In this document: one piece after another, positions 3,964 to 61,212 of the stretch
How the letters are laid out: each line of letters begins with the position of its first letter
Numbering within the stretch: the stretch's first letter is position 1
Position numbers and translations under genes: made by a program
From: an uncultured delta proteobacterium
Lineage (GTDB): Bacteria; Desulfobacterota; Binatia; UBA9968
Length of the DNA: 64,000 nucleotides
Direction: 5' to 3'
Assembly: GCA_963745035.1 (NCBI GenBank)
Contig: CAVUVW010000012.1
Coordinates: 1-64,000, forward strand
The notes under the pieces: model-generated
The model's input: the letters and a program-made list of their open reading frames with translations, nothing else
Told to the model about the DNA's origin: nothing
Databases searched by the model: none

Positions 3964-5814
3964 CTAGTCCAGCTCGAATTCCTTTTGCCAATCGCCGTCG
4001 CCTTCCAAAGGTTTCTGCTCCTCCTTGTAGAGAAGACAGTTTTCCAACACCAGGACATCGATGGCGGTGCGCATGAAGCAGCGATAGGCGTCTTCCGGCG
4101 AGCAAACGATGGGCTCGCTTCGAACGTTAAACGAAGTATTGACCAACAGCCCGCAGCCGGTCTTGGATTCGAAGGCTTTGAGTAACTTATAGTAGCGCGG
4201 ATTGGTGTCTTGGTGCACCGTCTGGATGCGCGCCGAGTAGTCCACGTGGGTAGCAGCCGGGATATCGGATTTGGGAACGTTCAGTAGATCGATGCCCCAG
4301 AGCGCCTGTTGCTCCTTGGTGGGAACGATGCGGCGCTTTTCCACCACCGGAGCCACCAGGAGCATATAGGGGCTGTCCGCATCCATCTCGAAGTAGTCGG
4401 CGACGCGTTCGCGGAGCACGGAGGGGGCGAAGGGACGGAACGATTCTCGGTATTTGATCTTGAGATTCATGACCGATTGCATCTTGGGACTGCGCGCGTC
4501 CCCGAGGATGCTCCGGGCGCCCAAAGCCCGCGGGCCGAACTCCATTCTGCCCTGGAACCAGCCGACGACCTTCTCTTCGGCCAGCTCTTGGGCCAGCCGG
4601 TCGAAAAGGATCTCGTCGGTCAGCTTTTCGTAGGGGGCTTGTTTTTGTCGCAGAAACTCTTCGATCTCTTCGTTGGTGTAGGAGGGACCTAAGTAACTTC
4701 CCTGCATGGTGTCTTTTGTTCTCTCGGCGATTCGCGGCTTGTCCTCAAGCCGGTGCCAGGCGGTAAGCGCGGCGCCCACGGCGCCTCCGGCATCGCCGGC
4801 CGAGGGCTGAATCCAGAGTTCCTTAAACGGCCCTTCACGCAGGATCCTTCCATTGGCCACACAATTTAAGGCCACGCCTCCGGCCAGGCAGAGATTCTCG
4901 GCGCCGGTCTCGCGGTGGAGGGTCCTCGCCAGGCGAAGCACGACCTCTTCGGTGACTTCCTGGATGGAGCGGGCAAGATCCATGTCGCGCTGGGTGAGCA
5001 ACGTCTCGGGCTTTCGCGGCGGGCCGCCGAACAGCTCGTCGAATTTACCGTTGGTCATGGTGAGCCCGGTGCAATAATTGAAATAGTCGATCTTGAGCCG
5101 AAAAGTGCCGTCGTCTTTTAAATCGATCAAATTATCGTAGATCGCTTTTACATAGACGGGCTTGCCGTACGGCGCGAGACCCATGACTTTGTATTCCCCG
5201 GAGTTGACTCGAAACCCCGTGTAGTAGGTAAAAGCCGAATAAAGCAGCCCCAGCGAGTGCGGGAAGTTGATTTCCCAGAGGGGCGTGAGAGCGTTGCCGT
5301 CGCCGAGCCAGGCCGAAGTGGTGGCCCATTCGCCGACCCCGTCCATGCAAAGTACCGCGGCGTTTTTAAACGGTGAAGGATAGAACGCCGAGGCGGCATG
5401 GGACTCGTGGTGCTCGCCGAATAGAATCGGCGGCAGGCCGTCCTTTTTTTTAACCCCGTCCGTGGAGATCAACTCGTTTTGCAAAACGCTCTTGAGCAGA
5501 AGCTTTTCTTTCATCCAGACCGGCATGGCGGCAAGAAAAGACTGGATGCCTTTGGGAGAAAAGGCAACGTAGGTTTCCAACAGCCGCTCGAATTTAATCA
5601 GCGGCTTGTCGTAGAAGATAAAATATTTGAGATCGGCCAGGGATATGCCGCCCTCGCTCAAGCAGTAGCGTACGGCGTTAGCCGGGAAGCGGGCGTCGAA
5701 CTTTTTCCGTGTGAAGCGCTCTTCTTGCGCGGCCGCGACAATTGCGCCGTCGCGCAGTAAGCAGGCGGCACTATCATGATAGAATGCCGAAACACCTAAA
5801 ATATAGGTTGGCAT
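3964..5814 (-). CDS. Carbamoyltransferase (NodU/CmcH/TobZ family)
   Basis: ILGVSAFYHDSAA, AAQEERFTRKK, HHESHAASAF, DGVGEW, GGVALNCVANG, GRMEFGPRALGARSIL, RESFRPFAP, NTSFNVRSEPIV. Confidence 0.95.
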   Translation of the reverse strand: MPTYILGVSAFYHDSAACLLRDGAIVAAAQEERFTRKKFDARFPANAVRYCLSEGGISLADLKYFIFYDKPLIKFERLLETYVAFSPKGIQSFLAAMPVWMKEKLLLKSVLQNELISTDGVKKKDGLPPILFGEHHESHAASAFYPSPFKNAAVLCMDGVGEWATTSAWLGDGNALTPLWEINFPHSLGLLYSAFTYYTGFRVNSGEYKVMGLAPYGKPVYVKAIYDNLIDLKDDGTFRLKIDYFNYCTGLTMTNGKFDELFGGPPRKPETLLTQRDMDLARSIQEVTEEVVLRLARTLHRETGAENLCLAGGVALNCVANGRILREGPFKELWIQPSAGDAGGAVGAALTAWHRLEDKPRIAERTKDTMQGSYLGPSYTNEEIEEFLRQKQAPYEKLTDEILFDRLAQELAEEKVVGWFQGRMEFGPRALGARSILGDARSPKMQSVMNLKIKYRESFRPFAPSVLRERVADYFEMDADSPYMLLVAPVVEKRRIVPTKEQQALWGIDLLNVPKSDIPAATHVDYSARIQTVHQDTNPRYYKLLKAFESKTGCGLLVNTSFNVRSEPIVCSPEDAYRCFMRTAIDVLVLENCLLYKEEQKPLEGDGDWQKEFELD

Positions 5815-5863
5815 GGATTCTTCTCCAAAACTAAAAGCAAAAACCTTATCAGTCGGCGAAGCC

Positions 5864-6616
5864 TTATCCTTTCCGGATCACACCCAGGTAGTGAGTACAA
5901 AGCGGTGAAAGCTTTCCCAGTAAATAACAAGCCAAGTGGGAATACGGCGCCAGCAAACGGGTCAACGGGGGGAGCAGCGTGATTCGCTCGAGCTCGATAC
6001 GGCATCCCGGAAACAACTGAGCTATCTCACGTCGTTTAACCCCGCGGACATCGCTGTTTCGCGGATTGTTCACGCGATAATCGTACCAAAGAATGAGACC
6101 CGTCCGCTTGACCACGCGCATCATCTCCCGTGCGATCTGTTGTCTTAACGATGAATCCAGGATTGAGGTAAAAACCGTCGATTGGAGGACCAGATCAAAA
6201 CTTTCATCGACAAATTCCAGTTTGGCTGCATTCCCGCGCTCGATTTTAATCTCCGGTGGACATAACTGCCGGCTCTCGACAACCCGATCCTCCAACAAGT
6301 CGATTCCCGCCACATTTTCGGGCCGCGCTCCCCATTTAATGAAGTCGCGAAGCCAGTGACCTTCACCGCAACCGATTTCGAGCAGCTTTTTCGATTTCAA
6401 GTCCTCATAGCCATGCTGCTGCAACAGCCCCAGGGTTCGCCTCTCCCGCTCCTGTATCATAAAAAGGTGGCCCGGATTGAAGCATGAATAGAGTCCGGAA
6501 TAGACGGCGGTGTCCTTTCGTTTTGAATAAACTTCCCGGATTCTGGCCTCTTCAGCGGCCGCCGCGTCCGGACTGTCGTAACCTGTGGAATGGTTTCTAC
6601 TCACGACCTTAACCAA
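5864..6616 (-). CDS. Class I SAM-dependent methyltransferase
   Basis: LLEIGCGEG motif I; FVDESFDLV. Confidence 0.85.
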   Translation of the reverse strand: MVKVVSRNHSTGYDSPDAAAAEEARIREVYSKRKDTAVYSGLYSCFNPGHLFMIQERERRTLGLLQQHGYEDLKSKKLLEIGCGEGHWLRDFIKWGARPENVAGIDLLEDRVVESRQLCPPEIKIERGNAAKLEFVDESFDLVLQSTVFTSILDSSLRQQIAREMMRVVKRTGLILWYDYRVNNPRNSDVRGVKRREIAQLFPGCRIELERITLLPPLTRLLAPYSHLACYLLGKLSPLCTHYLGVIRKG

Positions 6617-6681
6617 TTCGGCTCATTGTAACAGAACGCCTATAACACCACAAAAATGGATCAGCACTCATGCCTTGCAGA

Positions 6682-7842
6682 TCAGGATGCCTGGCGTGCC
6701 GACGCTTCAGGATCCAAAGCCGATGGTTTCGCGCCGTAAAATGCGCCGATCTGCTCGACGACGTAGCTTTGTTGCTCTTCCGTAAGCTCTGGGTAGATGG
6801 GGAGCGCCAAAGCATCCAGGGCAGCAGCTTCCGCGCGCGGAAAGTCCCCTTCTTTATACCCAAGGTATTCGAAACATTTTTGCAGGTGGAGCGGAATCGG
6901 ATAATAAATTTCGGTTTCAACGCCCTGCCGCCGCAAAAAAGCCTTTAACGCGTCCCGGTCCGGACAGCGAACGACAAATTGATTATAAATATGGCCCGGA
7001 GCGTCTTCCGGGAGCGTGATCTTTCCGAGCAGACCGCCTTGCGCAAACAGATTCCGATATCGCGCCGCATTGACCTTGCGCGCCTGAGTCCATAACGAAA
7101 GATATTTCAATTTGACTCGCAACACGGCCGCCTGGAGCGCGTCCAGCCGGAAGTTCCCCCCGATGACAGCATGGTGGTACTTGGGTTCTCCCCCATGAAC
7201 GCGCAGAATCGAAAGCTTCATGGCCATGTCTTTGTCATTCGTGACTACCATGCCGCCGTCGCCGAAAGCTCCGAGATTTTTGCTGGGAAAAAAAGAAAAG
7301 CATCCGGCGTGGCCGAAGGCTCCCGCCCGCGTCCCGCTCTCGTCATGAGCGCCGATCGCTTGCGCGGCGTCTTCGATGACCAGCAGATTTTTACTGCGGG
7401 CGATTTCCAAGAGACGCGGCATTTCCGCGCAGCGGCCAAATAGGTGCACCGGCAGAATCGCCTTGGTTCGCTCCGTGACTTTGGCCTCGATCTGCGCCGG
7501 GTCCAAATTGAAGCTGTTTTCCTGGATGTCGACGAAGACCGGTTTGGCGCCGAGCCTGGCGATAACGCCGGCCGTGGCAAAAAACGTGAAAGGGCTGGTG
7601 ATGACTTCGTCTCCCGGATCGATGCCGGCCGCCATCAATGCGATCAATAAGGCATCGGTTCCCGAAGATACTCCGACGGCATGGGCGACTCCGCAAAAGT
7701 CCGCAATCTCCTGTTCCAGGGCGCTGACTTCAGGCCCGAGGATGAATTTTTGTGAATCACAGACGCGATCGATGGCCTGCCGGGTTTCCCACCGAATCGG
7801 GGCGTACTGAGCTTGCAGGTCCAGAAGTGGCACTTTCATCAT
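6682..7842 (-). CDS. DegT/DnrJ/EryC1/StrS aminotransferase (WbpE/WlbC-like)
   Basis: [31 protein letters not shown] (PLP Lys), [12 protein letters not shown]. Confidence 0.92.
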
Positions 7843-9416
7843 GCTGCGCGAACCTCCTCGCCGACTTTACGGTATTGTTTTTGACAGGCCCGACAAACGA
7901 CTTGGCTTTGACTTCCATTGTGCTCGAGGCGATTGCCGCACGCGCACATCCATCCCGCGATCCGTGCCGGGTTACCCATAACGAGAGCGAAATCGGGAAC
8001 GTCTCGGGTGACGACGGCGCCGGCGCCGACAAAAGCATATCGGCCGATCGTCACGCCACATACGACGGTGCAATTGGCTCCCAAAGTCGCGCCGTGCCGG
8101 ACTAACGTAGGACGCAGCTCCTCCATCCGGCTTATCTCGCTTCGCGGATTGTAAACATTGGTAAACACCGCCGATGGGCCGCAGAATACGCCGTCCTCGA
8201 GCGTGACTCCTTCGTATACCGACACGTTATTTTGGATTTTCACTCCGTCGCCGACGGTGACATTCGGCCCGACCACGACGTTCTGACCGATCCGGCAGTC
8301 CCTTCCGATCCGGGAATTGCGCAAGATATGCGAGACATGCCAGATGGTCGTGCCTTCGCCAATCTCCACGTTCTCGTCGATGAACGCCGATTCATGCACG
8401 GAATAATTGGGACGCCGACCGACTTGCCCAGTCTTGGATCCCGGCATCTGAAGCGCGTCCTGACATTGCTGCAAGACCGTCAAGACTCGAAGACCCTCAT
8501 GGCCGTCGGTGCGCGGATTTTGGCGCGTTTGCATGCACTCTAGAAAATGCCCGCATTCAGCGCGCAGCGGCTCGCCAGAGTCGACCGGCACCGGGCGGGC
8601 TGTAGCCTTATTGGGAACAGGAATCGAGCCTTTCCACGAGATGACATGCGGATAAAGAGTCAATTTATTTTCCTGTTCCACGTCATCAAAGACCGCCATT
8701 TGACGCTCCCCGACTACAATGAGCTTTTGCTCTTTGTAGGGATGCAGCCAGGACACAAACACGTGCGCTTTGATGCCGCTGGGAAAGGACAGCAGGCTCA
8801 CCGTAACGTCGGCGATTTGATCATGAAGATAATTCCCGCCTTGTGCATCAACGCAAACCGGCATTTCTTCCACCAAGCCGAGAATGACGGAAATGTCGTG
8901 CGGAGCAAAAGACCAGAGGATATTCTCTTCCCTGCGGATTTTTCCCAAGTTCAGACGATTCGAATAAATGTAACGGATGCGGCCGAGTTCACCTGCTTCG
9001 ATGAGCTGTTTCAATTTCACAATCGCGGGGTGATACCAAAGCAGATGGCCAACCATCAGTATGCGTTTTTCTTCAGCCGCAAGCGCGATCAATTTCCTTC
9101 CTTCGGATACGGAAAGACAGAGCGGCTTTTCAACGAACACGTCCTTTCCGGCCAATAGCGCTTGACGCACCAAAGTCTCGTGCGTCTCGGCGGGCGTGGC
9201 AATCGCTACGCCCGTCACCTGCGTATCCCGCAATACCGCATCGACGCAGTCGCTAAACGCGACATCGGGATAGAGGGACCTGAACTTACTTATTCTGTCC
9301 GGATCCGAGTCACAGATCATGTGCAGGGCGCCCAGCTCGCTAAAGTTGCGAATAAGATTTTGGCCCCAATAACCGGCGCCGATGCACGCGATGCTTTTGC
9401 TGGTCGGACGATCCAT
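7839..9416 (-). CDS. Gfo/Idh/MocA dehydrogenase fused to hexapeptide N-acetyltransferase (WbpB-WbpD-like fusion)
   Basis: N-terminal GAGYWG and VFVEKP. C-terminal left-handed beta-helix with [36 protein letters not shown] and a terminal CxxC. Confidence 0.9.
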
Positions 9417-9439: not shown

Positions 9440-10502
9440 TCATCTCGTTGCGTTTTCGTAAGACTTCGCTGGCGAACGCGTCAAGCGCGTGAAATGAACC
9501 GACGGTTTCCGCCGAAGAACGATAAAATCGACAACGCCGCGGAGAAAGCCAAAGCCGTAGGCAAAATGGTAGCAGGCGAAAACAAGAGGAAGAATCGGCA
9601 ATAGCTTCCAACCGTGACGCGCCGCCGTCAGCAATGAAGCGCCAGCGTTGCAGATTGCATAGGTGCCCGTCAATAGTGTCCAGCCCCAAGCTGCGAGCCA
9701 CGACCATGGACTCGCTATCGCCAGGGCAAATAATGCAAGAACAAAAATACCTGGTGCCAGATGGCGCCACGAAGCCGGAATTTTGTGCTTCTGGATGACC
9801 CGGACTTTCCAGTAACCATACTGCATGTACTGCCGGCAGAGAGCATGCAGAGATGGGCGAGGTCGATACCAGCTCCGGATTCGCGGCGATTGCCAGATCT
9901 TTCCACCTGCTCGTGTCAGTCGGAGGTTAAATTCATCATCTTGGTTGCGCACAAGGTCTTCGTCGAAAAAACCGATACGGTCAAAAACTTCGCGCCGCCA
10001 GCAACCGTACGTCACGGTGTCTACGTAGCCTTCATATTCGACATCGTGGAATCGTGCTCCACCCACGGAAAAAGGAGAGTGATACGCGGCACAGATCGCC
10101 GCCTGCACGTAATTTGTTGCCTCCGTGCGTGCAGGACCACCCACGTTATCAGCGCCGGTCTGGTGCAGTACCGTCAAGCATGCGCAAATATAATCGCTCG
10201 CGTACTCAGTGTGCACATCCATGCGAAGGTACCACCTCGCCTCGCGCCGCGCGAATGGCTGCGTTTAAGCCAGTGGACACGATCCGGCCGGGATTATCGA
10301 TTACCCGCAACCGCCCATCCTCGCGCGCGAGCCGGGCAAGAATCTCCCGCGTGCCGTCGTCGGACATGCCGTCGGCGACGATGACTTCGAGCTTACCCGG
10401 CACGGCACGCTGCCCCAGCACGGAACGCACGCATGCCTCGATGTGGCCGCGCTCATTACGGCACGGAATCACCACGGATATGATCGGCAGGTCTTTTGAC
10501 AT
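9440..10502 (-). CDS. GT2 glycosyltransferase (ExoA-like), frameshifted near 10220
   Basis: SVVIPCRNE...DGMSDDGTR (10206-10514) plus MDVHTEY...RNQDDEFNLRL...QYMQYGYWK with C-terminal TM helices (9440-10222). Confidence 0.85.
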
Positions 10503-10547
10503 CCCGATAAACATTTATTGTGCGCGGAGACTGTCCAAAAAGCTGTT

Positions 10548-11378
10548 TCAGGGCTCAGCGTTAATCGTTGGCATTAGCTGTGTGACAAGGGTCACCAGGT
10601 GATCGAACAGCTCCTCGTCGCGGTGTTCATAGCGAAACGCCAGCTCGGTCAAAAAATAATACAGGTCCTGGTCCGAGCTGCGATGAAACCTGCTAAGCCG
10701 CGACCGGGCAAAGCCCCAAAAGCCACTCAGACCGTCGAGGCTGGACTTGCCTTTAGGCAGGCTTCTTGACGCTGCCGCCGGCAGTCGAACGCGCCACAGA
10801 AGGAGACCGTCATACTCGCCGTAAGAGCCGGTAAAAACAATCGGCCCCTGCTTGATGAATCTGGGCTGCTCACGCAGCACAGTCTCGACGCTCAGGCCCA
10901 CGACCGGAGAAACCTGAATCTTTCCTCCTCGTTCGACGAAACCGAACATGCGGCCCGCTTCGTCCGGCGAGCCTCCCTCAAGCGGCGGCGTGGTGCCCGC
11001 GCCGGTCGTCGCCGATCCCTGCTCGCCGCTCGCCTGCGCGATGGCGCGCCGGATCAAATAGATCGCCTTGAGCGCGGTCGGATAACTGATGCCGACTTCT
11101 TTAGCGAGCTGCGCCGGCGGAATTTCGAGCTCGAACAGCTTGACGATCCAGAGCCATTGCCGCGCCGTCAGATTTAACTCGCCGATCCAGCGCCGCGTGA
11201 AATCATGAAACGTGTAGCCACAGCGCGCGCAGCGATAACGTTTGTCCGCCAGGCGATAAATTTTCGAGCTTTCGCACCGCACGCAAAAGCGCCGATTCTG
11301 CCGCCAGGCTTCGTTGACCAGGTGGAGATGCGCGCGTCTCTCACTCCGGAATAAAGATTCCAGGGACTTTAGTGGCAT
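10548..11378 (-). CDS. IS1595/ISXO2-like transposase homolog with degenerate catalytic triad (putative domesticated DNA-binding protein)
   Basis: Zn ribbon CVRC-x14-CARC, HTH (LAKEVGISYPTALKA), FGFVERGGKI, FWGFARSRL.RFH and YLxExxFRY-like YFLTELAFRYEHRD. Acidic catalytic motifs are absent. RBS AGAGGA upstream. No terminal inverted repeats seen. Confidence 0.75.
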   Translation of the reverse strand: MPLKSLESLFRSERRAHLHLVNEAWRQNRRFCVRCESSKIYRLADKRYRCARCGYTFHDFTRRWIGELNLTARQWLWIVKLFELEIPPAQLAKEVGISYPTALKAIYLIRRAIAQASGEQGSATTGAGTTPPLEGGSPDEAGRMFGFVERGGKIQVSPVVGLSVETVLREQPRFIKQGPIVFTGSYGEYDGLLLWRVRLPAAASRSLPKGKSSLDGLSGFWGFARSRLSRFHRSSDQDLYYFLTELAFRYEHRDEELFDHLVTLVTQLMPTINAEP

Positions 11379-11630
11379 CGGTCCTCTTACTGCCAGGACC
11401 TTAATATCGTGCCTACCGTGTCGTAACTGGTCGGCCGCTCCGGCGCGTCATTGTGCACGCGCTACGCTTCGCCGACGGCAACCGACTGCGTTGGATTGCC
11501 GGTTCATCACCAAGTCCTCAAACGATGTCGCGTTAGAACATTGTCCAAGAGAATTGGCTTGTGTCCGTCTTTGTTCGGCAGCTTTGGGGAATCTACAAGA
11601 AAGCACGGAAAAAAAGAGAGAACCGCCCGC

Positions 11631-11646
11631 TGGCATTTGAATTGCT
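11631..11646 (+). promoter_or_regulatory. sigma54 -24/-12 promoter upstream of the riboswitch
   Basis: TGGCAT-TTGAA-TTGCT matches TGGCAY-N5-TTGCW. Confidence 0.8.
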
Positions 11647-11679
11647 CCCCCACGCACCGACATCGAAATAGAAATCGGG

Positions 11680-11775
11680 AGCCTGTTAAGGGCAAACCAT
11701 CCGAAAGGATGGGACGCAAAGCCACTGGCCTAAGTTCCGAGAAACGTCGGAATACGGCAGCAGGGTTGCCTGGCG
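11680..11775 (+). promoter_or_regulatory. c-di-GMP-I (GEMM-I) riboswitch
   Basis: AAGGGCAAA-CCATCC-GAAA-GGATGG-GACGCAAAGCCACTGG-CCTAAG-ttccga/tcggaa-TACGG-CAGCAGGGTTGCC. GNRA tetraloop, 11-nt-receptor-like CCTAAG/TACGG, and G20/A47/C92-equivalent residues as in the Vc2 aptamer. Confidence 0.93.
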
Positions 11776-11781
11776 AAATCA

Positions 11782-11836
11782 GTACCTTCTTGGTTCTGGA
11801 ATCGCGCCTTCCAGATCCCACTAACCAAAGAGGTAC
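11782..11836 (+). promoter_or_regulatory. Putative expression platform: RBS-sequestering stem
   Basis: GTACCT-TC-TTGGTT (11782-11795) pairs with AACCAA-AG-AGGTAC (11823-11836), burying AGAGG just before the ATG at 11839. Internal hairpin CTGGAA/TTCCAG. Confidence 0.7.
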
Positions 11837-11838
11837 AA

Positions 11839-13242
11839 ATGCATTTTTGTCGGTTTCCTTCTCGCGCGCTCATTCAGTCAGCCGTTTTCCTGGCGCTCCT
11901 TTTAGTTTTCATGCCGAATGCTTCGCATGCGGCATCTGCTTGTACGCACTACGCCTCTCCTACCGGCACCGGAAATGGCTCATCTGTGTCACAGCCTTTC
12001 AAGATTGCTAATTTCTGGCCTTTGGCCAAGCCGGGCGACACGCTCTGTCTATTGGACGGGCATATACCGGCTCGGTTCGATGATTACATCCGCCCGACGG
12101 GCTTAAGCGGCACCGCCTCGCGCCGATCACCATTGCGGCTATAAACGATGGCAAAGTTCGCATCAACGGTCGAGAGGCATACGCAAGCCGGTCGCTTCTT
12201 AGTAACAACGACTGGTGGATTCTCGAAGGTTTTAACGCGAGCGATTCAACATATTTCGGTCGTTAGTCATCGGCGGCGGTGCGGACAATAATATCATCCG
12301 GCGCGTCTGCGCATGGAACGCCGACCGACAACCAAAAATGAAAGGGTATTCGGAATAACCGGAAGTGGACCCACAACACCCTTGAAGACGTCGTGTGGCT
12401 TTGGTACGGGCAGAAAAATTTTCGCGATCTCTCAAGGTGGAAACTAACACTACCATCCGGCGCCCTGGGGCAATGTTCGAGAAAGACTACTAAGCCTAAC
12501 CGGCCTGAAGATGCCTATACAGTTTGCCTATAACAGCGACTGGCCAACATGCTCGAAAACGTCATTGGCACCTGGAAGCAGACCAGCCGAGACAATCTTA
12601 ACGTCCGGTTCAGGCAATCCGTGGATCGGCAAATGAAGGCACCAACACAAAGTTTCGGGTTCGATAGCGTATATCTGCGGATGCCGGCGACTATCGTACG
12701 CGCTTCCCGGTTGATTGGCACAGAATGGTCGCACGTACCTCACGGTACTAATCGCGATCTACAAGATGTCGTTTCTTACAGCGAAGCAGCTCGACCACAA
12801 CACTGGTCTCTTGCAACGCGGCAGCCGTGCACAAATTGCTACCTCACCAACAACACGCAGATCGGCGGTACGCTCATCCAGTATCGGTCAGCTCTGGACA
12901 ATACCTGAATCGCATAGATATTACGCCAGTTCCGCATCTGCGGCCATAATACAGCTGGAACGGAAGTCAGTAACTCGAAGGCACGGCGCACGCATGTGCT
13001 TAAACGCTATGAAAACGGCGTGCTCACAATCAACCAGCTGTGGCCCTGGCCGATGGACCAACGTATCCGCGCGGCTCTTGATCTCGCGGGCAAAAACCCC
13101 GATGCGATCTTCGGCGGCGCGGGCAAGACCCTAACCAGATCTGATGGAAAGTATCTTTGGTACGATTCCGAGTAGCTGCAAAACCTCCACCTCTGTCGTC
13201 AACGTGCCAAGCATCCCGACTGCCGCCTCGAACTTGGAGTGA
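11839..13242 (+). CDS. Secreted right-handed beta-helix-like protein 1 (multiple frameshifts)
   Basis: Signal peptide, then ACTHYASPTGTGNGSSVSQPFKIANFWPLAKPGDTLCLLDG. Fragments NNIIRRVCAWNA, QGGN, ENVIGTW, QLWPWPMDQRIRAA, IPSSCKTS...PTAASNLE. Confidence 0.65.
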
Positions 13243-13543
13243 GCTACTGACGAGAAGCGAATCTTGATCAGGCGAACCGCAGCGCTGTACGGCGCTGCGG
13301 TTCGCGTTATCATTCGATCCCGTTTCAGAACATTCGCTAGGCAGCATTCTATCTTTGATGCCCGAATGGGTTTCGACGACCTGCCCAGATCAAGCAAAAT
13401 TCCGCGAAACCTCCTGTGCAACAGAACTGCGTAACCCATGAATATCGTCTTCCTCTTAGCAGAACTATCTGTGCAATCGAATAACGATCGAATTGCGTCA
13501 CGCGGGTAGCAACAAATGCGGTTGTGATGTAATTAGTAAAAGC

Positions 13544-14918
13544 ATGAGAGCACAACTCCTTTCCGCGTTCTCTTTTGTGATTTTAGGCTTGGCTTGGACT
13601 TTCGCGAATCCAAGCTCCTCAGGCGCCGACTCGACCTGCACTCATTATGCTTCTCCTGCAGGCACGGGCAGCGGCGTCTCCGCTTCGCAACCTTTCAAAA
13701 TCGCCGATTTCTGGCCGCGCGCCAAACCCGGCTACACGCTCTGTCTTTTGGACGGAAAATACACGGGCTCGGATTCCATGATCAATCCGCCTCAGAATCT
13801 CAGCGGCGCGGCCAGCATGCCCATAACAGTCAGAGCATTGAACGATGGTAAGGCTTCGATTGATGGAAGGTCTGTTAACGAACCGGTCCGTCTCCGGCAC
13901 AACGATTATTTCGTACTTGAAGGTTTCAACGCACATCATAGTAAAAGTACCGTTATCCAGCTAGAGCCGCTCTAACCATAACATTATAAGAAGAGTCGCC
14001 GCTTGGGACGCCGCCGATAACAACACCCACATCTTTGGTATTCACGGGGGAACTCACAATCTTCTTGAAGACGTGGCCGGATGGGGAGTTGGCGCGGAAA
14101 ATATTTTCCGCCTCTCAAGGTGGAAACTACACCACCATCCGCCGCGCCTGGGGCCGATGGGAAGGCTCTCACGTCGTCGGTCCAAAGATGACTTACACGC
14201 TTGCCTATAACAATTACAACATGACATGCGAAAACTGCATCGGTACCTGGAGTGGCGAACGGATGAAACAAACTTATGTCCTTCTTGATTACTATGGGAA
14301 ACCATGGACCGGCAGAGGAGCTGGGACCTACACCGACTACGCCGTAGATCAACCTTACGGCATCTTCGGCATAGATGCCTTAACAGGCGATAAAAATGCT
14401 CGTACTAAACTTTTGGGCAGCATCGCCTATGTGCGCGGCGGTGATCGCTTTGCTCCCTCACAAGCTATCTTTGTGACGAAAGTCGATTCCGTCGAGGTGG
14501 CAGATACAGTTGTCTATCATTGAACCCGGCACAAACCCCACTACACAACGATTTTCCCTCAATAACCTGGCAAGCGGCACAGGAATTAACCTGATTGCTA
14601 GAAAACTCACCGGCATTGGAGGTGCCAATTCTCAGTACGGCTCTAATTGGAAAAAGAATTCTGTTTCCGAAGGCCCTACTCCGGATTCGGTCGACAACGT
14701 ATTTACTTCTTCGCACGGGGCGACTCTCTGTCATCGCTACATAGATGGAGCTTGACCGACACTCCCCTTTGGCCGTGGCCCATGAATCAGAGAATCAAGG
14801 ATGCCATGATCGAATCGGGCCGCAGCGCCGTGGACGTTACCGCTACGGTCGAAGAGATGTTGGACCCATACCCGGCTCGTGTAAAACGTCCGGTGGCAAT
14901 GCAGCTAAGTCCCGGTGA
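13544..14918 (+). CDS. Secreted right-handed beta-helix-like protein 2 (frameshifted), paralog of protein 1
   Basis: Signal peptide, then TCTHYASPAGTGSGVSASQPFKIADFWPRAKPGYTLCLLDGKY...NIIRRVAAWDA...RKIFSASQGGNYTTIRR...ENCIGTW...LWPWPMNQRIKDAM...IPGSCKTS. Confidence 0.7.
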
Positions 14919-15029
14919 TTCGTATGAAATCACTCGATTCGCTCTGCTCCCGTGCGAGAGAATTTTGGGCTTGATCTTCAATCAACGACTGGCTCGCTTC
15001 CTGAACGCGCCGGTTGGACACTCGTCCTA

Positions 15030-16719
15030 TTATTTTGATGCCTCGACATATGTCTCAAAAAACTTTGCCAGTGTGTGCATTTTGAAAACGGATTTGCGGG
15101 CAAGTCTGTTTTCTGAAAGCGCTTTCCGAAAATGCTTTACATCGAAAATCGGACAGTTGCTAATCCTATTAACGTACTCTTTTACCCTTTCATTTCCGCT
15201 ATTAAATTGGTTTTGTTTGACGCGCGATCTTAAGCCTTGGATGCAATCTCGAAATCCACGCGCCGTGCGCAACACAATGGGCAATCGCGCTTCCCATTTC
15301 AGCGGAATAGGAAAACCACTCGCCGGGTACTCACCAAATTCCTTGAAGCGGTAATAACCTGCGTAACAGTGCGCTCTTTGGCTCGTCAGATGCTCAATGG
15401 GTGCGCGGAAATAGGCGTCCAGTACTGCATTATCCAAATAAGGCAAGATTAGCTGAGTATACTGCAAAGCGGGAACCATAGCGTTACGGATCCTCTTCCG
15501 GTTTCTATTAGCTGTTCTCTGCCAAATTACCGTGTCTGAAAAAGTTGAGCATGCCTTCTCGGAATCGAAACTAGCATTCCACTCAGCCTTCGCTCTTTCC
15601 GTGCGGTCATAGGATGCGTCGATCAGCAAAGTCTGAGCCTCTTCAAAGCTCAATTGCTCCATTTGACCTTTCAACTCATAGCTTGCCAGAGCTACAATAT
15701 CGTCGAACTGCTCAGGTTCCGGAATTGTCAACCCTCCACTAATCGGTCCTCCCGCGAAACCCAATAATAGATACTCGATTTCGTGCTCGGCACATGTCTT
15801 TGCGAGTACAGCAAAACCCCAATCATCCATTGAATGGCCATCCGAGTAGACAAAGACGTTCTCTTTAATCTCCTGCATGTCCGTGGCTGGAAAAGATTTC
15901 TCCAATAATGAAACGTCCGTCAGTAAACACAAACGTTGCACCACATGATCATTGAAGTTATTTTCACGCCATCGAAATGCCTGAAAAGAAAGCTGCTGCG
16001 ACGCCAACGCTGATAGAATCAGCCTCGAGTCGTGACCGCCCGTCAATCCAAGAGCCAGGGTTTTTCCACGAGTTCTCTTCTGAATACGACTGGCGAACTC
16101 CTCCATGGAAGTGACAATCGATGTCACTGTCTCTTTCAACTCCAATCCCGTCGCCCGCGCCGGCACTTTCCAGTAGCGCGCCGATGTGTTTGCACCAGCC
16201 TTATATGTATTAATCAGTGCACGGCAGTTGTATACTGACGTTCCGCAGCAGCGTTCGCTCTCCAATCGGAAACCCAATTGTCAAAAATTGAAATGCCGCG
16301 TCATCATCGAGCTTCAGCACCTTCAGCCGTTTGAACGCAGATAGGTTTGACGAGACAACGAGATCCTGATCACAGGACCAATACAAAGCCCGAACACCCA
16401 ATCGATCCACGAACGTCGCCAATGTTGACGATTGCCGGTGGAAAAGAAATCCCGAGAAACATCCATTGAGCGCGGCAATGGCGAGCTCTTTTTCACTCTT
16501 ATAATTTTGGACCAATAAGTCCGCCAGCTTAGGATCATCACCGTGTAACGGCTCATGGCCGCAATAATCTTCGTAGAACACTCCCTCAACGAAGCACAGA
16601 TAATCGTCGCCCTCATGAAAGGACCATGAAGTTAGCGGCAAAGGAGCTTCAGGTTTCCACACCCCAAAAGCAATCCCATCGCTGGCCCATATCATCTTGT
16701 TTGTTGCCAAAATCGCCAC
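15030..16719 (-). CDS. Asparagine-synthetase-like protein lacking N-terminal Cys (frameshifted near 16240)
   Basis: Degenerate Ntn domain (ALNGCFSG...DRLGVRALYW...GERTLLRNV) plus ATPase domain LGLTGGHDSRLIL, LLGFAGG, LPYLDN. Confidence 0.7.
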
Positions 16720-37438: not shown

Positions 37439-37453
37439 GCAAGCAAGGTGCCA
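37439..37453 (-). promoter_or_regulatory. sigma54 promoter of the EPS operon
   Basis: Minus strand TGGCAC-CTTGC-TTGC, about 30 nt upstream of the ATG at 37410. Confidence 0.8.
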
Positions 37454-38996: not shown

Positions 38997-39011
38997 TGGC
39001 ATAACGGTTGC
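38997..39011 (+). promoter_or_regulatory. sigma54 promoter candidate (CBS gene)
   Basis: TGGCAT-AACGG-TTGC. Confidence 0.72.
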
Positions 39012-47219: not shown

Positions 47220-47234
47220 TGGCACATGCTTTGC
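47220..47234 (+). promoter_or_regulatory. sigma54 promoter candidate
   Basis: TGGCAC-ATGCT-TTGC. Confidence 0.72.
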
Positions 47235-48888: not shown

Positions 48889-48903
48889 TGGCACATCGGT
48901 TGC
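48889..48903 (+). promoter_or_regulatory. sigma54 promoter candidate (PsiE-like gene)
   Basis: TGGCAC-ATCGG-TTGC. Confidence 0.75.
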
Positions 48904-61197: not shown

Positions 61198-61212
61198 TGG
61201 CATTGGTCTTGC
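61198..61212 (+). promoter_or_regulatory. sigma54 promoter candidate
   Basis: TGGCAT-TGGTC-TTGC, about 33 nt before the ATG at 61246. Confidence 0.68.

Follow-up and report, generated by a model that had tools for sequence, protein, structure and literature searches.

What does a transposase-like gene that has lost its catalytic residues do at a polysaccharide locus, and why has it been kept? In the window, which is the whole 64,000-nucleotide stretch of DNA that was analysed, such a gene, here called deadTnp (10548-11378, minus strand), lies directly upstream of a GT2 glycosyltransferase gene. A reading made from the sequence alone had proposed that the gene had kept its DNA-binding modules, had given up catalysis and had been exapted as a transcription factor for EPS genes. 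Our comparisons bear this out in part: they strongly support loss of the catalytic residues with retention of the putative DNA-binding, N-terminal modules, and lend good support to the view that deadTnp is a domesticated transposase, because it is single-copy, belongs to one monophyletic syntenic clade, shows stepwise loss of the catalytic triad and is under strong purifying selection. From the same material we infer a role as a regulator, probably acting at its own relic ends and at the flanking promoters.

The ORF of deadTnp starts with ATG, is intact and encodes 276 amino acids; the ORF itself, the Pfam and NCBIfam searches and an alignment of 73 homologues were used to define its parts, and the Zn-ribbon and the IS1595 C-terminal scaffold that had been recognised by the sequence-only reading are both present. 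The gene also has the ribosome-binding site of its own that had been noted, a Shine-Dalgarno sequence, AAGAGGA (11382-11388, minus strand, read from the sequence), located 4 nt before the ATG, of which GAGGA is kept in most orthologues of the clade of 60-75% identity. Short contigs from four RNA libraries (three studies) map to deadTnp, three of them with 0 differences; these contigs cover parts of the gene, carry no strand or level and could reflect DNA carry-over, and are a weak hint of expression. At most 0.32 of the words were present in the DNA runs compared with the window.

The Zn-ribbon (residues 12-56; 11211-11345, minus strand) is matched by Zn_ribbon_IS1595 (PF12760) with 30.5 bits against a cut-off of 25.4, and its four cysteines, C32, C35, C50 and C53, are invariant in the 73 homologues. 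It is followed by a helical region (residues 60-116; 11031-11201, minus strand), in which the AF2 model places helices at 60-67, 72-83, 88-95 and 99-116 (pLDDT 87-98), and which includes the invariant columns S98-Y99-P100-T101 of the homologue alignment. The Zn-ribbon of the sequence-only reading thus stands, while its HTH is a putative one, composed of helices 88-95 and 99-116 of the model together with a weak DUF2089-HTH match (E 0.085). Residues 117-142 (10953-11030, minus strand) form a low-complexity linker, variable in the alignments and with a high dN/dS, of which residues 125-137 have a pLDDT below 50 and are disordered. The remainder is a degenerate RNase-H-like core (residues 143-270; 10569-10952, minus strand), defined by the motifs, dN/dS, pLDDT and a partial match to DDE_Tnp_IS1595 (PF12762; 27.1 bits against a cut-off of 27). 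This match covers only profile positions 40-152 of 153, and therefore the stretch bearing the first Asp is absent from the window protein, which also scores below the cut-off of the NCBIfam IS1595 profile (NF033547, 38.1 bits against 75). F220-W221 and E245..F248-R249-Y250 of the C-terminal scaffold are invariant or nearly so in the 73 homologues. The AF2 model has an overall pLDDT of 85.2 and a pTM of 0.84, with mostly 86-97 in the core, a confidence that may not mirror a stable fold, because the strand that once carried the first Asp is missing. With the model as query, Foldseek returned 0 PDB matches at E <= 0.001 for the whole protein; the alignments obtained were with Zn-ribbon ribosomal proteins only, over about 48 residues, and were uninformative for the core. 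The homodimer prediction (two copies, alignment A2) scored 0.41, against a mark of 0.42.

IS1595 elements are described in ISfinder by a 'DDEK' signature, with DDEK-type subgroups. We assigned the triad positions by alignment to multi-copy relatives, which read ELDESYF / VYTDKF / NG(L/V)EGFW where the window protein reads a non-alignable linker / VFTGSY / DGLSGFW. The linker occupies the site of the first catalytic motif, ELDESYFGG..RGRGA, FTG replaces YTD and DGLS replaces NGLE, with the FW and ExxFRY scaffold kept, so that the replacements proposed earlier (ExDE by a linker, YTD by FTG, NGIE by DGLS) hold on alignment to relatives with intact motifs. The triad positions of the window protein are P/G/S, and the R at +7 is the sole retained part of the D, D, E(N/H) + K/R(+7) signature.

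The loss can be followed along the family. D-D-E is found in 100 of the 136 loci of at most 40% identity; above 40%, it occurs in only two of 23 (L009 and L147). In the tree, the 21 syntenic sequences, all with an intact ORF, group together as a single clade (support 0.869), whose sister is L147 (support 0.975), an element in which the triad is intact and the left repeat complete. Multi-copy elements of about 0.9 kb, whose repeats measure about 25 bp, surround this whole group in the tree, and deadTnp descends from a mobile element of this kind. Within the clade the triad reads DDE in L009, ADE in L146, NDH in L010, FDD in the L011 group, xG(D/E) in the clade of 60-75% identity and PGS in the window, a series that, on these alignments, describes a stepwise loss. 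The shared loss predicted for the homologues is thus found in 19 of the 21 members, but L009 keeps D-D-E; the other exception is L148, whose aligned acidic residues are perhaps not homologous to the triad.

The position of the gene is as constant as its sequence family. The 7.43-Mb window genome (G000) contains a single full copy and, besides it, a fragment of 36 residues, and a full-length match is present in only 6 of the 123 genomes of the order (G000 included), with one copy each; near-identical copies with terminal inverted repeats are absent from G000. The conserved synteny at EPS genes that had been anticipated is also found: GT2 is immediately downstream in 18/18 relatives that share at least 41% identity and whose available sequence extends far enough past the gene, and in 0/136 relatives of at most 40% identity. 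deadTnp and GT2 co-diverge (Mantel r 0.58, reached by 2 of 2000 permutations), and in close pairs the two diverge equally (e.g. 0.90 vs 0.89). Empty sites exist as well: L132 and L134 have the orthologous GT2 right next to the riboswitch and sigma54 region, at about 200 nt, without deadTnp, and L128, L130 and L131 have a more distant GT2 and no deadTnp-type gene. Since clusters with an orthologous or related GT2 operon exist without it, deadTnp is not needed for the operon as such. In a blastn comparison of filled with empty sites, the genes aligned, and the intergenic DNA was too diverged to place the insertion point or a target duplication.

These data bear on whether deadTnp is still a mobile, site-specific IS, at least in its basal forms, or a decaying pseudogene in the window. 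The D-D-E of L009, the retention of most of the left repeat by L146 and the frameshifts in neighbouring genes of the window assembly would agree with one or the other. Against both stand the single copy per genome, the restriction of all syntenic copies to one clade and one site, the loss of the triad in 19 of 21 members, and a window ORF that is intact and whose N-terminal 113 residues are 96% identical to those of L007 at a dS of 0.86. We therefore regard either version as very improbable.

The sequence-only reading had seen no terminal inverted repeats, which is fair for the window taken alone; comparison with relatives corrects it. The repeat of active relatives, defined from multi-copy pairs, is roughly GGTGATT-N8-10-TTTGGCACCA. 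Its inner half persists as a left relic, ATATTAAGGTCCTGGCAGT (11389-11407, minus strand), 11 nt upstream of the ATG, which is a possible operator or promoter. The motif TTAAAAAnTTyGGCAC is found 16-21 nt from the ATG in 19/19 syntenic loci and also in the sister element L147; in the window, the left relic has a leave-one-out PWM score of 11.1, the second best in 5.8 kb. A weaker right relic, GTTAATCGTTGGCATTAG (10560-10577, plus strand, by-eye comparison), overlaps the last codons of deadTnp. The right-end relic is within the top four PWM hits in 17/19 loci, the window not being among them: compared by eye with the ...ATGCCAAACAATTAA of the orthologues, the window relic has one A missing, which makes the ORF longer by a few codons. 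In the syntenic loci the inner halves alone persist, and the GGTGATT outer tips of active elements are not conserved. The conservation of the left relic could be merely that of the deadTnp promoter and leader, and on the right the constraints on protein and DNA are inseparable, because the relic overlaps codons of the conserved C-terminal LMPN tail.

Two further candidate sites were rejected. The sequence TTTGGCAC in the left relic was considered by eye as a sigma54 -24 element for deadTnp itself, but GC is missing at the -12 spacing, and the ribosome-binding site follows within about 10 nt. A third PWM hit, GGTGGAAAnATCTGGCA, about 1.5 kb downstream, sits in the GT2 codons for the conserved GGKIW, i.e. 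reflects coding conservation.

Upstream, the region of deadTnp is shared in the window with the sigma54/riboswitch cassette, as had been described: a divergent sigma54-type promoter motif found by motif scan, TGGCATTTGAATTGC (TGGCAT-N5-TTGC; 11631-11645, plus strand), and a c-di-GMP-I riboswitch (11681-11773, plus strand; Rfam RF01051, 83.3 bits), which leads the divergent secreted-protein genes (11839-15354, plus strand). The latter were identified by tblastn as fragmented paralogues of the roughly 470-aa 'SecP' of orthologous loci, and their one family match is a weak one to Chondroitinase B (E 0.011, below cut-off). The window contains six sigma54-type motifs against 0.30 expected. Counted upstream from the ATG, such a motif is reached after 91-103 nt in 14 of the 18 orthologous loci with enough flank and after 267 nt in the window; L008 and L146 have none within 400 nt. 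Sigma54 activator genes are absent from the window contig (C12), and 28 are encoded elsewhere in the genome. We considered the riboswitch as a constant partner of deadTnp and rejected it, as among the loci scanned it adjoins the gene in the window, L008, L144 and L169 only; in L010 it is downstream, behind an inserted gene, and it was not detected at the gathering score in L007, L009, L011, L135-L138, L139, L140, L141, L143, L145, L146, L148 and L155, some of which have short flanks. A sigma70 promoter scan of 10300-11900 gave 0 sites, and one terminator-like site inside deadTnp is at chance level.

Downstream, the stop of deadTnp is followed by the GT2 start after 33 nt (ATG 10514) or 45 nt (ATG 10502), exactly the range given before. 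In most orthologous loci this spacer is about 130 nt and bears conserved GGGACA..GACAC motifs, and the 33-nt spacing of the window appears to be derived. GT2 probably keeps its own control region, because the same motifs also precede it in clusters where deadTnp is missing. In the window, GT2 (9440-10514, minus strand; Pfam) is split into two ORFs (10206-10514 and 9440-10222), which one extra base near 10206-10222, judged by eye and either real or a sequencing error, would explain. The orthologues are single ORFs of 352-391 aa, and the secreted-protein homologue of the window is likewise in several pieces, in line with the indel-rich window described before. The syntenic sugar-modification genes (3964-9416, minus strand; Pfam) comprise a GFO/IDH/MocA-hexapeptide fusion (7839-9416), a DegT aminotransferase (6682-7842), a methyltransferase (5864-6616) and a carbamoyltransferase (3964-5814), all on the minus strand, and their order is the same in L007, L010, L011, L135, L137, L138 and L141.

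The constraint on the protein was assessed with our own Nei-Gojobori script, which gave a whole-gene dN/dS of 0.09-0.19 in 18 orthologue pairs, below 1 as foreseen; dS is saturated in the distant pairs, and the low values are also obtained in pairs with unsaturated dS (e.g. L137-L136 and L007-L137). The constraint is domain-specific. For residues 1-113, dN/dS is 0.00-0.06 in dead-clade pairs (dS 0.24-2) and 0.10-0.12 between the most basal members, whereas it is about 1 in the linker (range 0.27-1.8); the dead core gives 0.08-0.31. This difference, together with the ORF being intact in every syntenic sequence of the tree, argues against selection acting on the DNA, by which a stuck element would be kept for promoter or spacer functions of its ends, with the ORF as a passenger. 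The conserved relic ends with their spacing, and the insertion between two control regions, are what such an explanation would predict; given the protein constraint, we consider it most unlikely.

Taken together, these results show that a single insertion brought an IS1595-family IS into the space between divergent genes of a polysaccharide locus, within one family of 'Candidatus Binatia'. The IS was about 0.9 kb long, had inverted repeats of about 25 bp and carried a DDE(K) signature, and it landed between the sigma54-type promoter of the secreted-protein genes and the control region of the GT2-led sugar-modification operon. The copy then turned immobile, as judged from its being single-copy and from its non-conserved outer repeat tips, and shed its three catalytic residues one after another. 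Purifying selection continued to act on the N-terminal module with its Zn-ribbon and helices, and apparently also on the fold of the core, now dead, and on the inner half of each repeat; deadTnp is accordingly a domesticated transposase. deadTnp would still bind the inner repeat, TTAAAAAnTTyGGCAC, which flanks its own gene. Many IS transposases repress themselves, and deadTnp may do so as well, because the deadTnp promoter and 5' leader coincide in part with the left site. The left site is also centred about 90 bp upstream of the expected sigma54 start point, from where the protein would probably modulate the divergent sigma54 promoter, because the spacing between site and promoter is conserved while the sequence between them is not. 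The GT2 operon could possibly be modulated through the right-end site. Across loci, the cis partners of deadTnp that vary least are its relic ends and the divergent sigma54-type promoter. The proposed role as a transcription factor for the EPS genes, still a putative one, needs changing in the light of this, of the control region that GT2 probably has for itself and of the close clusters that lack deadTnp. In the window itself, the relics are weaker than at any other locus, the distance to the sigma54 motif is 267 nt where about 100 nt is usual, and GT2 is in two pieces, so the local system may be decaying or the assembly may contain indel errors. The joint account of a single insertion, domestication, and a putative regulator at the relic ends and flanking promoters seems to us reasonably probable.

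A more specific arrangement, a 'frozen transpososome' that serves as an enhancer bridge, is doubtful. According to it, the IS split the sigma54 promoter from its upstream control sequences, the GGGACA..GACAC motifs, and pairing of the ends loops out the 0.83-kb gene and restores the contact. These motifs are about 60-70 nt beyond the right end in filled sites and about 115 nt from the promoter in empty sites. If this were true, selection would keep end-binding, end-pairing and helical phasing and remove catalysis.

A different function, which we judge unlikely, is that of a transposition-immunity factor: the dead protein would bind the repeats of related incoming IS, or poison their transposase as a dominant-negative subunit, and so protect the genome, the GT2 site being simply where the founder got stuck. 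In agreement with this, the module that would recognise repeats is the most conserved part, and the core, which in DDE transposases mediates multimerisation, is also constrained. Environmental bacteria commonly carry active relatives whose repeats match, and truncated or inactive transposases inhibit transposition in other IS families (Tn5 Inh, IS1 InsA). However, there is no active close relative in the carrier genomes, the only other IS1595-type gene of the window genome being distant, and deadTnp co-diverges with the neighbouring GT2. An inhibitor acting in trans would, moreover, need neither relics in cis nor a constant sigma54 spacing. A putative local regulator remains our preferred reading.

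Like the IS1595-family IS (PF12760 + PF12762), deadTnp has a Zn-ribbon, a helical region with a putative HTH and an RNase-H-like core with FW and ExxFRY, and its locus retains relics of both repeats. In contrast to them, it is without the three catalytic positions, the first motif being a disordered linker, and it is single-copy, fixed at one locus, below the NCBIfam cut-off and without conserved outer repeat tips. Triad-degenerate relatives also adjoin selenocysteine-type fdhAB in Desulfovibrionales, which suggests that bacteria have turned IS1595-type transposases into locus-specific DNA-binding proteins on more than one occasion.

The conversion of a DDE transposase into a DNA-binding host protein is a textbook theme in eukaryotes; in bacteria, to our knowledge, it is hardly documented, and our literature search found neither a bacterial case of IS1595 domestication nor a description of deadTnp. 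Transcription factors derived from domesticated DDE transposases in eukaryotes (POGZ- and PGBD-type) share with deadTnp a DNA-binding domain that was kept, catalytic residues that were lost or dispensable, and single-copy orthologues under purifying selection, but they belong to other superfamilies. IS transposases also exist in self-regulating or inhibitory forms, such as IS1 InsA and Tn5 Inh, which bind the repeats with their N-terminal DNA-binding part and repress the promoter of their element; these proteins belong to active elements, whereas the deadTnp element is immobile and inherited with the host locus. In bacteria, TldR proteins are nuclease-dead, TnpB-derived RNA-guided repressors (bioRxiv 10.1101/2023.11.30.569447). 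Like deadTnp, they are described as domesticated transposon proteins that lost catalysis, kept DNA targeting (putative in deadTnp) and have a conserved association with host genes. They differ in deriving from the RuvC-type TnpB of IS200/IS605 and in being RNA-guided, whereas deadTnp is DDE-derived and would recognise its own former ends, with no guide RNA implied. Genes of this kind also call for caution in annotation, as the label 'IS1595 family transposase' in these genomes is not a marker of a mobile element. Beside these systems, the locus offers an unusually complete series, with an active sister, a syntenic D-D-E member, intermediates that lost one or two residues, dead forms, empty sites and the former ends in cis, which makes it testable what selection keeps in a bacterial transposase once it is immobile, and whether an IS between divergent promoters can become a regulatory device.

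The gene followed here, deadTnp (10548-11378, minus strand), is an intact ORF of 276 residues, in which Pfam recognises a Zn-ribbon of the IS1595 type (30.5 bits against a cut-off of 25.4). The ISXO2/IS1595 DDE domain is barely at threshold (Pfam, 27.1 bits against 27), and its match spans profile positions 40-152 of 153, so that the segment with the first catalytic Asp is unmatched; the NCBIfam IS1595 model, whose cut-off is 75 bits, scores the protein at 38.1. The AF2 model (pLDDT 85.2, pTM 0.84) is confident except in the linker (residues 125-137). Upstream, on the plus strand, lie a divergent sigma54-type motif (11631-11645) and a c-di-GMP-I riboswitch (11681-11773, 83.3 bits), and the next gene downstream encodes a GT2 glycosyltransferase, which starts 33-45 nt past the deadTnp stop and is followed in order by a GFO/IDH/MocA-hexapeptide fusion, a DegT aminotransferase, a methyltransferase and a carbamoyltransferase. 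The sequence-only reading had described the intact ORF with its Zn ribbon, the upstream region shared with the sigma54/riboswitch cassette and the same spacing to GT2, all of which the ORF reading, Pfam, the riboswitch match and the measured distance bear out.

The 7.43-Mb genome G000, to which the window belongs, holds one full copy of deadTnp, and a second, complete but distant gene of IS1595 type (107 bits) lies on a different contig; single copy number was among the points that the earlier reading had singled out. A large protein collection contains 359 homologues (E ≤ 0.001) whose identities fall off smoothly from 78% to 39%, most clusters being seen on one or two contigs, and scans of genomes and metagenomes gave 160 loci. 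Loci of ≤40% identity often occur in 2-3 copies per genome that are 98.8-99.9% identical over 893-939 bp (the identical stretch is longer in L012/L013), with terminal inverted repeats of roughly GGTGATT-N8-10-TTTGGCACCA, the right one overlapping the C-terminal codons. These multi-copy loci are active insertion sequences. Seven of the active elements (L024, L027, L031, L045, L046, L012 and L147) carry a short hairpin, GGCACCA...TGGTGCC, after the left repeat; it ends at the start codon, may serve to control translation of the transposase and is missing from the domesticated clade.

The active elements share the motifs (V/I)E(L/M/V)DE(S/A)YF, VYTDKF and NG(L/V)EGFW, with a K seven residues past the Glu, and D-D-E stands at the three aligned positions in 100 of 136 loci of ≤40% identity. 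The deadTnp protein has instead a non-alignable Gly/Ala/Thr/Pro-rich linker, VFTGSY and DGLSGFW, which confirms the triad loss read from the sequence. Its catalytic positions were assigned, not by experiment, but by alignment to the multi-copy relatives and from the 'DDEK' signature of ISfinder. Decay is stepwise within the syntenic clade, the triad reading D-D-E in L009, A-D-E in L146, N-D-H in L010, F-D-D in the L011 group, x-G-(D/E) in the clade of 60-75% identity and P-G-S in the window; the expected common loss holds for most of the clade and fails for L009. Checked for triad, complete repeats and mobility, deadTnp has none of the three: it is an IS1595-family derivative and no functional member of that family.

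An orthologous GT2 gene lies directly downstream in all 18 loci of ≥41% identity with sufficient downstream sequence (L007-L011, L135-L138, L140, L141, L143-L146, L148, L155, L160), with one secreted-protein gene intervening in L010, whereas neither GT2 nor another cluster gene adjoins in this arrangement in any of the 136 more distant loci; the anticipated conservation of EPS synteny is thereby upheld. Six further loci above 40% were not counted, since they have <300 nt of downstream flank (L139, L142, L165), end at a contig end (L147, L169) or are truncated (L175). The last, a metagenome contig of 1435 nt, keeps the conserved Zn-ribbon and helical module to about residue 117, followed by an unrelated tail and a stop, which points either to a naturally N-terminal-only variant or to a chimeric assembly. 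L010 (3465-10532) has three paralogous secreted-protein genes, of which the intervening one is equipped with a separate c-di-GMP-I riboswitch (77.1 bits).

A maximum-likelihood tree built from 145 non-identical sequences groups the 21 syntenic ones in a single clade (support 0.869), whose sister is L147 (support 0.975), an element in which the triad is canonical and the left repeat complete. deadTnp and the GT2 next to it have diverged in parallel (Mantel r 0.58, a value attained in 2 of 2000 permutations), and to an equal extent in close pairs (0.90 vs 0.89; 0.85 vs 0.82). L008 and L140, where GT2 is a more distant form, depart from this pattern. Full-length deadTnp occurs in 6 of 123 genomes of the order, G000 included, one copy each and all of one family; for the GFO-hexapeptide gene nearby, orthologues of ≥70% identity are present in 15 genomes, again counting G000. 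In L132 and L134, which have no deadTnp, a divergent region of ~200-350 nt adjoins the orthologous GT2 (63-65% identity) and contains both a c-di-GMP riboswitch and a sigma54 motif; deadTnp is also missing from L128, L130 and L131, whose GT2 is more distant. Most simply, an IS inserted once into the divergent intergenic region and was then inherited with the locus. The genomes of L007, L009 (treated as G074, G055) and L134 (G052) are flagged unpublished, and each claim is backed by other loci too. In L132 (5102-5180), L130 (8266-8354) and L169 (2544-2623) the riboswitch is assigned to RF03167, the c-di-GMP-I-GGC variant, and not to c-di-GMP-I, so related clusters may differ in the ligand that their leader recognises.

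The sequence-only reading saw no terminal inverted repeats, but comparison reveals their remnants. TTAAAAAnTTyGGCAC lies 16-21 nt from the start codon in all 19 syntenic loci examined (window, 11389-11407, minus strand), and in L147 the equivalent position is occupied by the inner half of the left repeat; the outer GGTGATT tips are not conserved in the syntenic loci. With a leave-one-out weight matrix built from these left sites and scanned over loci of up to 5.8 kb, an opposite-strand match at the deadTnp 3' end ranks within the top four in 17 of 19 loci, all but L140 and the window, where the right relic (10560-10577, plus strand) was found by eye, displaced by one missing base that also lengthens the ORF. 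Indel errors in this assembly are possible: GT2 is broken into two overlapping ORFs at 10206-10222 (one ORF of 352-391 aa in the orthologues) and homologues of the secreted protein SecP (11839-15354) are in at least four pieces (orthologues, single ORFs of ~470 aa), being either real pseudogenes or products of homopolymer indel errors.

The right relic overlaps codons of the conserved ...LMPN tail, so that DNA and protein constraint are inseparable there. Nei-Gojobori estimates (own script, 18 orthologue pairs) gave dN/dS of 0.00-0.06 for the N-terminal 113 residues in most pairs (0.10-0.12 among the most basal members), 0.08-0.31 for the dead core (residues 143-270) and 0.27-1.8 for the linker; the first two are in line with the proposed dN/dS<1. 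Many distant pairs are dS-saturated and carry lower weight; the unsaturated pairs agree (L137-L136: 0.016, 0.076 and 1.04; L007-L137: 0.000, 0.12 and 0.45, respectively). Beside these ratios it is very improbable that selection acts on the DNA only and leaves the ORF unselected. Residual mobility, or decay in the window as its broken neighbours might indicate, is equally hard to credit for an intact single-copy gene.

As for regulation, the reverse complement of TGGCAY-N5-TTGC occurs ahead of the ATG, at a distance of 91-103 nt, in 14 of the 18 loci whose flank is long enough, with spacings clustered at 100-103 (ten loci) and 91-92 (three) and L010 at 98. L135 has a one-mismatch motif at 101, the window motif is at 267, and none was found within 400 nt upstream of the ATG in L008 and L146. 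The sequence between motif and left relic is not conserved across the clade, and the kept spacing, which differs in steps of roughly one turn of the helix, hints at a phasing constraint between a left-relic binder and the sigma54 promoter. The polysaccharide region of the window seems rich in sigma54-type promoters (6 exact motifs vs 0.30 expected; the other five at 37439-37453, minus, and 38997-39011, 47220-47234, 48889-48903 and 61198-61212, plus), and the 28 sigma54-activator matches in G000 include none on contig C12, which carries the window. In most loci a ~130-nt spacer with GGGACA..GACAC motifs follows deadTnp, and motifs of this kind also lie ahead of GT2 at the empty sites, so GT2 probably retains its own control region; by this comparison the 33-nt spacer of the window is derived. 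Short contigs from four RNA libraries (three studies), three without differences, map to the gene and give a weak hint of expression. About 10 kb past the window end (C12, ~74.2-74.8 kb), L002 repeats the divergent control region, with a c-di-GMP-I riboswitch (59.2 bits), a sigma54-like region, the left relic and an RBS, and then only the first ~125 nt of deadTnp (a 36-residue fragment, 75% identity over residues 13-48, one TGA) before the sequence becomes unrelated; apparently the regulatory cassette has undergone a segmental duplication.

We propose that deadTnp would bind its own former IS ends, would repress its own gene at the left relic and could influence the divergent sigma54 promoter and possibly GT2. 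It might alternatively be an immunity factor against related IS, which such binding would also allow and of which active members exist; we regard this as unlikely.

Among relatives of ≤40% identity, 33 have a complete ORF without D-D-E, and 31 of these are Desulfovibrionales and Desulfobacterales loci. This group (L049-L085, 31-37% identity to deadTnp) is triad-degenerate, with for example VVYTAPYK, or x-D-K/Q replacing D-D-E. It falls outside the window clade, and 11 of 15 long loci examined adjoin a Tat-signal, selenocysteine-split molybdopterin formate dehydrogenase (fdhA) and a 4Fe-4S subunit. These loci may represent a second domestication, IS1595-type proteins possibly having been recruited more than once.

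The comparisons establish a single domestication event, immobility, triad loss and domain-specific purifying selection for the window clade. Domestication of an IS1595 transposase is well supported, and a regulatory role is plausible. In the literature searched, which covered sources outside subscription journals, we found no description of a domesticated bacterial IS1595 transposase. In concept deadTnp resembles the domesticated DDE transposases of eukaryotes and the bacterial TldR proteins, described as nuclease-dead TnpB-derived RNA-guided repressors (bioRxiv 10.1101/2023.11.30.569447).
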